From IMG/VR virus record IMGVR_UViG_3300001605_000009: DNA of 62,900 nt, one strand, 5' to 3'. A program made the translations under genes and the position numbers. The DNA is from a virus. Taxonomy: Duplodnaviria; Heunggongvirae; Uroviricota; Caudoviricetes. Below, one piece after another: positions 3,655 to 53,725 of this stretch (position 1 is the first letter of the stretch; each line of letters opens with the position of its first letter). The notes beneath the pieces were generated by a model. That model had not been told where the DNA came from, did no database searches, and was given only the letters and a program-made list of their open reading frames with translations.

Positions 3655-4270
3655 TTTAGCTAGTTGGCTAGTTCAGTCTCTATCTACCAAGCCCCTGGCC
3701 ACCTTCGTGGCAATCTTTCTAGTATTCTCAGGTTACATGGTCTACAAGGGCTATGACTCGATAATAATTAGTCCAGACGAAGAAGCAGTTCGATTTGAGA
3801 AACAGATAAAATCCGCTAACATAATTGACGACGCACTAGAGAATCTTAGGTCTGAGTTAAAAGCAGATAATGTTCTCATACGACAGTTTCATAATGGAAG
3901 ACACGATCTTACGGGGATTCCATTTACTGAAGCTTCTACTACTTACTTTGTAGACCCCGCTGATGGACACGATCCAGTCAGAGAGGAACCAATTGGATCA
4001 ATGCATAAAAGCATTGGAAAGATGTGGGCTAGAATTGACAAACCTAGCTGCGTAATGTTGTATAACCCAGTAGATATTTCTACTAGACGATATTTCAAGG
4101 CGCATAACTTAAAGAGTGCAGCTTTTTGCCCTCTTACTAATTTACTGAACTATCCAATTGGCGTCGTAGTCGTTGGATTCTCAGAAGGCGACACGGAAGA
4201 GGAAGTAGTCATAGCGAAGACTTCTGCTCTAGCAAAACGTGTTACAGGATACTTACAGGATGCCGGTTGA
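3635..4270 (+). CDS. putative holin, T4 T / T5-type (one N-terminal TMD plus large soluble domain)
   Basis: single TMD near residues 20-37, then QFHNG-containing GAF-like domain; next to the endolysin. Confidence 0.55.
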   Translation: MIKELNDLASWLVQSLSTKPLATFVAIFLVFSGYMVYKGYDSIIISPDEEAVRFEKQIKSANIIDDALENLRSELKADNVLIRQFHNGRHDLTGIPFTEASTTYFVDPADGHDPVREEPIGSMHKSIGKMWARIDKPSCVMLYNPVDISTRRYFKAHNLKSAAFCPLTNLLNYPIGVVVVGFSEGDTEEEVVIAKTSALAKRVTGYLQDAG

Positions 4271-4391
4271 ATATATTAAACGTAACCAGAGATTTGGCTA
4301 TGAGAATGGCGAGCTTGTTTATAAACTACCGGTCGAGTTACCTGTAGTAGAGGAGGAGCCCATTGAACTGGTTGAAACTGGAGACGAATGA
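4260..4391 (+). CDS. small acidic protein, 43 aa (not in ORF track)
   Basis: MPVEYIKRNQRFGYENGELVYKLPVELPVVEEEPIELVETGDE*; AGGA about 10 nt upstream; fills otherwise empty 4271-4362. Confidence 0.45.
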   Translation: MPVEYIKRNQRFGYENGELVYKLPVELPVVEEEPIELVETGDE

Positions 4392-52166: not shown

Positions 52167-52241
52167 TGGTGCTTCCACTCTGAATCGAACAGAGATTTTC
52201 GGGTTACAAAGCCGAGGTAATAGCCGTTATACTATGGAAGC
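52167..52241 (-). tRNA. trnT: tRNA-Thr(TGT)
   Basis: acceptor GCTTCCA/TGGAAGC, loop TT-TGT-AA, encoded CCA; C31:C39 mismatch. Confidence 0.85.
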
Positions 52242-52242
52242 T

Positions 52243-52384
52243 TGGTGGAAACCCTCACGGATTGGTTTCCTGTACGAGCACTCCCACGACTATTGGCTGC
52301 AGCACAAATAGTGTCTCGTATTAACCCTCACGTATCGGGTTTAATGTCTAGCATTACGACCAGCAGGGGTAGCTAGACTGAACG
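52243..52384 (-). ncRNA. unclassified structured RNA (~142 nt) ending in ACCA
   Basis: four hairpins, repeated CGTGAGGGTT motif, 3' 7-bp stem plus ACCA; fills the whole gap between two tRNAs. Confidence 0.6.
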
Positions 52385-52460
52385 TGGTACTCCCAGTAGG
52401 ATTCGAACCCACGACCAAGCCATCATGAGTGGCCGGCTCTAACCGCTGAGCTATAGGAGC
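52385..52460 (-). tRNA. tRNA-CAT, probably Ile2 (lysidine type)
   Basis: cloverleaf; C4-G69 and C5-G68 pairs (TilS determinants); no fMet features; loop CT-CAT-GA. Confidence 0.8.
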
Positions 52461-52461
52461 A

Positions 52462-52626
52462 TTATTCTGGGTCTAAAATGAAAAGTAGAATAGTTAGTGG
52501 CCATACTAAAGACACACCAAGAAGAATCACAAACTGTGTAGACCCAATCTTAATAGGTGAGTCGTATAACATATAAGCTATTAAGGCTAAAGCTATTCCA
52601 AAGTAAATGATTGCTGCTATTTCCAT
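52462..52626 (-). CDS. small two-TMD membrane protein, 54 aa (not in ORF track)
   Basis: MEIAAIIYFGIALALIAYMLY..VWPLTILLFILDPE*; AGAGG RBS. Confidence 0.65.
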   Translation of the reverse strand: MEIAAIIYFGIALALIAYMLYDSPIKIGSTQFVILLGVSLVWPLTILLFILDPE

Positions 52627-52725: not shown

Positions 52726-53187
52726 CTAATGTCTAACGCAGTGATCTGCGGCTGTAGTTGCAGCAAAGCTATCTGGCTTTACTCGCGCTTGAAGACCAAG
52801 ACCTCGAACCCATCCAATAGCCTCACTTGTAACTACATTACTAGCGTGACGAGGGTCAGGATTAAAGTCTAGGTGAATTTCGAGACGACGATCTCCAACT
52901 ACGTCTTCAATAGCGTAGAATGCCTCTAGAGCAAACTGCACTTCCATCATTAGACGGGGGCGCATCTGACCGTAATCTGGTAGAGTTACCTTGTTATGAA
53001 AGACCTTGCAGCCATTTTTAGAGTTCATATGTAGAATAATAACTGTAGAAAAGTCAGCCTTATTCTTCGTTGAATTTCGTAATGAGTCACATCCAATATA
53101 AATACTTGATGCCTTACTTGATTTTAGAATTTCTTCTCTGGCATCAGCCCACATAACTATCCGTTTCAATTGACTCAATAGACTCAA
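52726..53187 (-). CDS. RNase H-like protein, YkuK/DUF458 family
   Basis: IYIGCDS, RL..EV, EIHLD.N, KP.SFAA...AD. Confidence 0.8.
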   Translation of the reverse strand: MSLLSQLKRIVMWADAREEILKSSKASSIYIGCDSLRNSTKNKADFSTVIILHMNSKNGCKVFHNKVTLPDYGQMRPRLMMEVQFALEAFYAIEDVVGDRRLEIHLDFNPDPRHASNVVTSEAIGWVRGLGLQARVKPDSFAATTAADHCVRH

Positions 53188-53398
53188 ACTTAATCGAGCG
53201 CCACTGGTTCTGCTCCAAGTCCCATACTGTTATAGTAAACTGGGACGGAGCGTATTTAATATTAGGGTTCAACTCAAGAACAGGCAAAAACATACTGTTC
53301 AATGTGCAATGCATTTCACGCTTTTCGCCATTCACTTTAGTGAATACGATAGTGGCTGTTTCTGTTTTCAGAAGCTCGCGAAGTTCGTTAATATCCAT
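53144..53398 (-). CDS. WYL_2/SH3-like small protein
   Basis: FTK.NGE.R.M.CTL, VWD.E...WRS. Confidence 0.75.
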   Translation of the reverse strand: MDINELRELLKTETATIVFTKVNGEKREMHCTLNSMFLPVLELNPNIKYAPSQFTITVWDLEQNQWRSIKFESIESIETDSYVG

Positions 53399-53634: not shown

Positions 53635-53725
53635 TGGTAGTCCTGTGTGGATTCGAACCACAATTAACCCCTAATCTGGGCTCCGGGATATAAATCCGGT
53701 CGTTTTACCATTAAACTACAGGACC
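53635..53725 (-). tRNA. tRNA with TAT anticodon (nominal Ile) and long variable arm
   Basis: 91 nt; acceptor GGTCCTG/CAGGACT, T-arm TGTGG-TTCGAAT-CCACA, loop TT-TAT-AT, 20-nt variable region, encoded CCA. Confidence 0.7.

Follow-up and report, generated by a model that had tools for sequence, protein, structure and literature searches.

Phage tRNA clusters are now regarded as loci of counter-defence and translation tuning. The tRNA region of T4 also yields stable RNAs whose role is still unknown (PMC3014915). In the T4 annotation these are rnaC (species 1, 139 nt) and rnaD (species 2, 119 nt), both within the tRNA cluster. A 142-base gap in the tRNA cluster of an uncultured phage raises a related question: what is the element that fills it, and what would it do? 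The preliminary description of the locus had proposed a single structured RNA of ~142 nt, freed by tRNA processing and ending in an imitation of a tRNA acceptor stem.

The window, i.e. the whole 62.9-kb stretch of DNA analysed, belongs to an uncultured freshwater T5-like phage, whose clade comes from freshwater and wastewater. Pfam finds a T5-like siphovirus protein set, including a family A DNA polymerase, a D15-like 5′–3′ exonuclease, T5 p140- and p143-like tail proteins and an A2-like protein, and the NAD ligase subunit is ~44% identical to those of Demerecviridae, e.g. My1 and AhSzw-1. DNA nearly identical to the whole or part of the stretch is present in 20 sequencing runs from 10 studies, covering freshwater, wastewater, mine drainage and hydrocarbon. 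ARAGORN finds seven tRNAs in the window, and the order of the minus-strand cluster is Leu, Ile, three ORFs, Arg, a 54-aa ORF, Met(CAT), the element, Thr, Gln, small ORFs and Trp. The following features are central to the analysis.

53144–53398, minus strand: WYL_2 gene, Sm-like fold (Pfam PF10902, 5.3e-14)
52726–53187, minus strand: DUF458/YkuK RNase H-like gene (Pfam PF04308, 1.5e-23)
52385–52460, minus strand: tRNA-Met(CAT), its CCA encoded, immediately 5′ of the element (ARAGORN; Rfam tRNA 60.3 bits)
52384–52243, minus strand: the element, a two-module spacer of 142 bases filling the gap between tRNA-Met(CAT) and tRNA-Thr
52167–52241, minus strand: tRNA-Thr(TGT), downstream of the element (ARAGORN; Rfam 55.3 bits)

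The element thus lies on the minus strand where it had been placed, between the CCA of tRNA-Met(CAT) and a single A (52242) that precedes tRNA-Thr. Neither ARAGORN nor Rfam finds a tRNA or tmRNA on 52243–52384, in line with the earlier remark that tRNA arms are absent, and the Rfam tRNA model (RF00005) gives no match on the element even at E up to 10. No other family of Rfam 15 matches it either, whether gathering thresholds are applied or E is relaxed to 10, and the same holds for Rfam searches with the modules of relatives described below.

Other members of the cluster are also unusual. The 54-aa ORF (52462–52626, minus strand), between tRNA-Arg and tRNA-Met, is small and hydrophobic, has no PHROG match and keeps its position in relatives (e.g. 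L012, 2669–2824). At 53635–53725 (minus strand), ARAGORN calls a 91-nt tRNA with anticodon TAT (Ile), unusually long for its isotype; versions of 90–95 nt occur in all relatives, so a long variable arm seems to be present. In more distant relatives (L049, 4790–5000; L054, 4850–4930), ARAGORN missed tRNA-like genes, one of which resembles tRNA-Thr(TGT) with an aberrant D-arm region, while the other is a tRNA with an insert of ~70 nt in the anticodon-arm region that carries a T-arm-like hairpin.

Helices, modules and covariation

All of the helices proposed for the element were found on the minus strand at their expected places.

52378–52372 with 52352–52346, minus strand: H1, GTCTAGC/GCTAGAC
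52341–52337 with 52327–52323, minus strand: H2, AACCC/GGGTT
52320–52315 with 52278–52273, minus strand: H3, TACGAG/CTCGTA
52312–52307 with 52294–52289, minus strand: inner stem, (A)CTATT/AATAG(T)
52270–52264 with 52253–52247, minus strand: H4, GGAAACC/GGTTTCC, with a 10-nt loop, then ACCA at 52246–52243

The repeated 10-mer CGTGAGGGTT was also recovered at plus-strand positions 52250–52259 and 52323–52332, and 11-mer matches with at most one mismatch number 3, compared to 0.27 expected. This repeat permits cross-pairing, and the helices are not to be judged from the window sequence alone. In the minimum-free-energy fold H2 and H4 do not form, and the 5′ half of H2 is paired to the 3′ half of H4; the comparative structure lies ~10 kcal/mol above it, and the single-sequence fold of the element is not significant against shuffles (z = −1.34).

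At the DNA level, the phage record collection contained nothing similar apart from one chance 20-mer, and a 17-mer scan of IMG/VR gave six matches, all of them chance occurrences inside unrelated sequence. Relatives were therefore reached via the neighbouring upstream DUF458/YkuK RNase H-like gene, whose homologues, from 100% down to ~50% identity, gave syntenic contigs; a protein search with DUF458 in IMG/VR found only 40%-identical phages with large tRNA arrays. Exact-pattern scans with the invariant P2 hairpin (see below) added four loci, one from IMG/VR and three from the metagenome collection. The same pattern was absent from the species genome collection, and a pattern for the long A-type module was absent from IMG/VR. 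The resulting set holds 22 distinct modules from 15 related metagenomic phage lineages. MAFFT, applied to all module types together, misaligned the structure of the 5′ end; the 22 modules were therefore parsed by hand, and each was verified verbatim in its source.

The modules follow a common order, i.e. P1 (6–7 bp), one U (C in two cases), hairpin P2, junction strand J2 and P1′, followed by a linker of 1–5 nt, hairpin P3 (5–8 bp with a 9–11 nt loop) and a tail. P2 always opens with AC and closes with GU, giving A–U and C–G closing pairs; J2 starts with C(G/U) and ends with AAU in 21 of the 22 modules; and every P3 loop contains an invariant CGUG. Altogether ~15 nucleotides are invariant in the 22 parsed modules, concentrated in junctions and loops. 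A GUGA tetraloop, suggested earlier for the P3 loops, is not conserved, as the base following CGUG can be A, C or G. The element contains this arrangement twice.

52379–52384, minus strand: leader CGUUCA, 6 nt, between the tRNA-Met CCA and module A
52378–52323, minus strand: module A, comprising H1 and H2
52378–52372 with 52352–52346, minus strand: module A P1, followed by U
52370–52359, minus strand: module A P2, short
52358–52353, minus strand: module A J2, CGUAAU; a linker follows P1′
52341–52323, minus strand: module A P3, loop GAUACGUGA
52320–52247, minus strand: module B, comprising H3, the inner stem and H4
52320–52315 with 52278–52273, minus strand: module B P1
52312–52289, minus strand: module B P2
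52288–52279, minus strand: module B J2
52270–52247, minus strand: module B P3, loop AAUCCGUGAG

The first covariance model, built from B-type modules only, detected module B at 90.9 bits (E = 2.7e-20) and also module A at E = 1.7e-4, which improved to 2.4e-7 with a second model after one iteration. That a B-only model finds module A indicates that the two halves are paralogous copies, and this accounts for the shared 10-mer. What had been described as one RNA of ~142 nt is thus a structured RNA on the tRNA strand, as proposed, but not a single one: the comparison indicates that the element is a tandem, diverged dimer of one structured RNA module of ~60–100 nt.

Three module types can be distinguished. 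The B-type has a nearly invariant 22-nt P2, the A-type has a P2 that is either short or long and branched, and the C-type, represented by a single copy after tRNA-Gly in L041, has a wholly different P2 stem. Tandems of A and B are found in L036, L038, L041, L045, L047 and the window lineage, B alone in L012, L014, L021, L022, L028 and L044, and A alone in L029. The copy after tRNA-Gly shows that the module is not bound to the Met–Thr spacer; this third module of L041 (5410–5483) is immediately followed by the ribosome-binding site for a 49-aa ORF. Sequence similarity alone reveals just the 3′ half of the element (H3, inner stem and H4) in diverged relatives. Of 12 lineages, 11 have an identical B-type P2 sequence, in contrast to the changing P1 and P3, and the 12-nt loop of this P2 is invariant across lineages.

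Homologues confirmed that the stems are kept by compensatory changes. The 22 modules contain 17 distinct P1 and 17 distinct P3 stems, and their stem cells comprise 262 Watson–Crick pairs, 16 G–U, 2 A–C and 3 others. In an alignment of the 13 B-type sequences, 96.4% of cells are paired (19–49% in slid-partner controls on the same sequences) and both partners have changed in 11 of 22 pairs, with the reservation that the sequences are related, so that some of these and the following covariation counts are inherited rather than independent. None of 500 shuffles reached the observed value on four of five measures, and 33 of 500 did so on the fifth, further pair types. P1 and P3 each have 5–6 pairs with changes on both sides, and in L023 an A-to-G change in the P3 of module A yields a G–U pair. 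P2 differs wholly between the A, B and C types, yet is a hairpin each time, and every P2 type folds alone. A model-based alignment of 17 distinct sequences, which by its making leans towards structure, gives double changes in 14 of 21 pairs, two of them in P2; model alignments at loose E-values drew in noise and were discarded. Taken together, the substitutions indicate that the module is a conserved structured RNA with helices held by compensatory changes.

As a G–U pair on one strand is an A–C mismatch on the other, the ratio of 16 to 2 fits an RNA in the tRNA sense, or else a single strand, and not an RNA from the opposite strand. A DNA-level role, as a cruciform or promoter, was rejected on this ratio and for want of promoter calls. 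A plus-strand ORF of 44 aa (52242–52376) was rejected as a coding explanation because substitutions in the stems are compensatory.

The leaders of relatives are similarly A/U-rich, often of the form GUU...A, and a pairing between GUU in the leader and AAU in J2, crossing P1, is possible but weakly supported: it reaches up to 6 bp in long A-type modules, where it starts with a G–U pair and shows one compensatory change, and comprises only 3 bp or none elsewhere. Side-by-side comparison of the modules gave no consistent covariation between the P3 loops and J2 or the linker, and no consistent pseudoknot. The invariant P2 loop has no target with up to three mismatches in the 62.9-kb window. The B-type P2 loop and junction, GUGCUGCAGCC...GUAAU (window 52289–52312, minus strand), loosely resemble the 530-loop region of 16S rRNA (GUGCCAGCAGCCGCGGUAAUAC, as in the 515F primer); this likeness may well be chance.

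The 3′ end of the element

The central claim made for the element was that its last 7-bp hairpin, a discriminator and CCA mimic a tRNA acceptor end. Acceptor mini- and microhelices are substrates of the CCA-adding enzyme, RNase P and some synthetases. The likeness in the window consists of the 7-bp stem followed by A-C-C-A: the tail ACCA (52243–52246, minus strand) is followed by A 52242 and tRNA-Thr, and after RNase P cutting the 3′ end would read stem-ACCA(A). If this were functional, the RNA would be aminoacylated or serve as a decoy for tRNA-targeting toxins.

The CCA end is, however, lineage-specific. ACC follows P3 in six of ~14 lineages and ACCA follows the last hairpin in two of ~14, namely the window lineage and L044; in L041, L045 and L047 ACC is followed by U. 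Most lineages have a pyrimidine- or AU-rich tail of 9–23 nt after the terminal P3, with AAUUUU(C/U), CAUUCUU, CCUUAUU or AUCUUCC, and AAUUUC, GAUUUC and AAUUCUU also occur. Two copies that share more than 99% identity with the element of the window are informative here: L025 has GCAU in place of ACCA, before a different tRNA-Thr, a form also present in contigs of two RNA-library runs (X16/X17), and in L023 ACCA leads straight into an ORF and its ribosome-binding site. Where modules stand in tandem, AA or CA and then the next P1 come after the upstream P3, which makes the homologous hairpin internal rather than terminal. Furthermore, the module has no T-arm or T-loop to stack on the stem, in contrast to acceptor mini- and microhelices, and its 10-nt loop carries a conserved motif of its own. 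Variable tails, and GCAU in a near-identical copy, leave the acceptor mimic unsupported, and we consider it extremely unlikely. From the comparison of tails we conclude that the acceptor-like end is an unselected accident of local deletion or recombination that placed ACC beside a tRNA; the window's CCA-like end would have arisen when the usual tail was lost and ACC came to adjoin tRNA-Thr.

The same tails bear on a transcriptional role, either as a weak intrinsic terminator or attenuator made of P3 and a U-rich tail or as a two-hairpin antiterminator RNA like HK022 put, maybe tied to HNH endonuclease cassettes that insert beside the module. AAUUUU(U/C) does follow P3 in L012, L014 and L021, the two-hairpin layout presumably resembles that of put RNA, and some of the ORFs adjoining the module are of HNH type (see below). 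Against such a role, no terminator or promoter was called on the window's element, whose tail reads ACCAAG; there is no U tract in the window lineage or in any upstream tandem copy; 10-nt loops with conserved sequence are atypical of terminators; and many lineages have the module but no HNH gene. A transcription-level element is thus very unlikely.

Distribution and likeness to known RNAs

To place the module among known phage RNAs, models R1 and R2 were compared with T4, where neither matched at 70908–71171 (rnaC/rnaD) or anywhere else in the genome; no shared motifs were found by reading. Model R2 likewise gave no copy in T5, My1, AhSzw-1 or Limnohabitans phage DC31, no module in the distant DUF458-bearing loci L007–L009, L049, L050, L054 and L056, and, on the 53-kb contig of IMG/VR to which L028 belongs, no copy beyond the known one. 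Nor does R2 find a further module elsewhere in the window. Judging from these searches, the module is restricted to this phage clade among the sequences covered.

The analogy with the T4 stable RNAs drawn in the preliminary description therefore holds for place and fails for sequence and structure. Both are non-tRNA RNAs on the tRNA strand inside a phage tRNA cluster, beside tRNAs. In contrast, T4 rnaC has a T-arm-like hairpin and a closing stem (fold z = −4.6), whereas the module has no T-loop and consists of a repeated two-hairpin unit. By analogy, the module resembles rnaC and rnaD in place and likely biogenesis but is not a member of their family; with no match in Rfam, it is best described as a new family among the non-tRNA RNAs that phage tRNA clusters encode.

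Theta ribozymes are a second point of comparison. They are HDV-like, lie directly 3′ of phage tRNAs (within ~5 nt) in gut phages, most often with tRNA-Met, suppressor tRNAs and tRNA-Leu, and have been proposed to act in 3′-trailer processing (Kienbeck et al. 2024, PMC10879173). The module is also a small structured RNA 3′ of phage tRNAs, usually just after tRNA-Met, and with its ~15 invariant nucleotides in junctions and loops, and a possible leader–J2 pairing across P1, it could be a self-cleaving ribozyme of a new kind, releasing the 3′ end of the tRNA before it in the manner of theta ribozymes. Its topology is nevertheless not HDV-like: in the 22 modules the strand order is P1, hairpin, single strand, P1′, hairpin, with a single-stranded junction after the inner hairpin, and there is no nested double pseudoknot and no J4/2 strand with a catalytic C. 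No Rfam ribozyme family matches even at E up to 10, a leader of 5–12 nt separates CCA from P1, and the crossing helix has only 3 bp or is absent in many modules. Some copies have no tRNA upstream at all, i.e. the second copies of tandems and those that follow an ORF (L014, L036). We therefore regard a ribozyme of this kind as highly unlikely.

The module is not a fixed part of the cluster. L015 and L017 have no module, and in both an ORF starts right behind the CCA of tRNA-Met; L014, whose DUF458 protein is identical to theirs, carries an HNH gene and a B module at this site. Close relatives that lack the module indicate that it is accessory and that maturation of the flanking tRNAs does not depend on it. 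In six lineages the module adjoins an ORF, either upstream or downstream; those in L014 and L028 are of HNH type, and the others are uncharacterised. From these arrangements, we conclude that the module region is a hot spot of cassette shuffling. HNH endonuclease ORFs beside the module share a conserved upstream leader with GCCGAAAAGGGTAGCTCCCCTG (L014, 4734–4825; L036, 5254–5300; L054, 4930–5015), which is probably a regulatory hairpin of a mobile endonuclease cassette.

Release from the precursor and possible partners

The position of the module at the boundaries of tRNAs and inserted ORFs also suits a role in cis, in which it would act within the precursor as a processing or insulating cassette and be functionless once excised. 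RNase E-type (or RNase III-type) sites in the A/U-rich flanks and the internal loop would be cut, 3′ exonucleases would be blocked by the stems, and the transcripts of flanking tRNAs or ORFs would be kept correctly separated. Phage T7 RNase III sites are irregular hairpins with an asymmetric internal loop, a description that P1–P2 also fits, and an A/U-rich single-stranded leader and tail stand beside stable stems in nearly all lineages. However, L015 and L017 process the same tRNAs without any module, the strict conservation of the 22-nt P2 and of CGUG exceeds the needs of a simple barrier, and P1, at 6–7 bp, is short for RNase III. A purely cis-acting role, in processing or transcription, would agree with this architecture, but a cassette of this kind is unlikely on balance.

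The explanation we favour, with our confidence about evenly balanced, is that the module is a small stable accessory RNA, freed by tRNA processing, whose loops bind a partner. It would be co-transcribed with the tRNAs and then freed by the tRNA-processing enzymes of the host: RNase P, acting at the 5′ end of tRNA-Thr, would set the 3′ end of the element, and cuts of the RNase E type would fall within the A/U-rich leader and tail. The placement suits such a release, as had been suggested before. RNA-library assemblies covering the region consist of contigs 7–8 kb long, or of one low-depth contig of 196 nt, and reveal neither transcription nor the ends or levels of an RNA. The stems would block exonuclease trimming, and the released RNA would persist like the T4 stable RNAs.

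Three conserved single-stranded parts are candidate sites for recognition by a protein or RNA partner, namely the invariant 12-nt P2 loop of B-type modules, the loops with CGUG, and J2. The 22-nt B-type P2, CGUG and the ends of J2 are invariant while P1 and P3 drift, which points to sequence-specific recognition by a partner. The earlier suggestion that the twin loops are binding sites is borne out to the extent that both loops are similar, conserved and plausible for recognition.

The overlapping WYL_2 and DUF458 genes (52726–53398, minus strand), upstream of the element inside the tRNA cluster and kept in all relatives, are a candidate protein partner. This link is speculative, since phages with the pair but no module exist. 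No Ro60/TROVE or vWA gene was found among the 20 window proteins scanned. DUF458 homologues at ~40% identity also occur mid-array in the 21–26-tRNA arrays of unrelated IMG/VR phages (L007–L011, around 4001–4384), and further homologues are found in KVP40-like vibriophages and roseophages; the association of DUF458 with tRNA arrays may reflect a phage-encoded RNA-processing or repair activity. A bolder version, which we think rather improbable, is that the module supplies the RNA component of a phage-specific RNA–protein system, as partner or substrate of WYL_2 and DUF458, or else is a new class of self-cleaving RNA. If true, these phages would possess a device of their own for tRNA-cluster processing or counter-defence that does not rely on host RNases.

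In summary, the analysis disposes of the CCA acceptor mimic, an appealing but mistaken lead, and draws attention to the DUF458 RNase H-like gene as a recurrent companion of phage tRNA arrays. The RNA family itself is tractable, with a three-helix fold backed by covariation, invariant loops, a tandem duplication, and presence or absence among near-identical phages.
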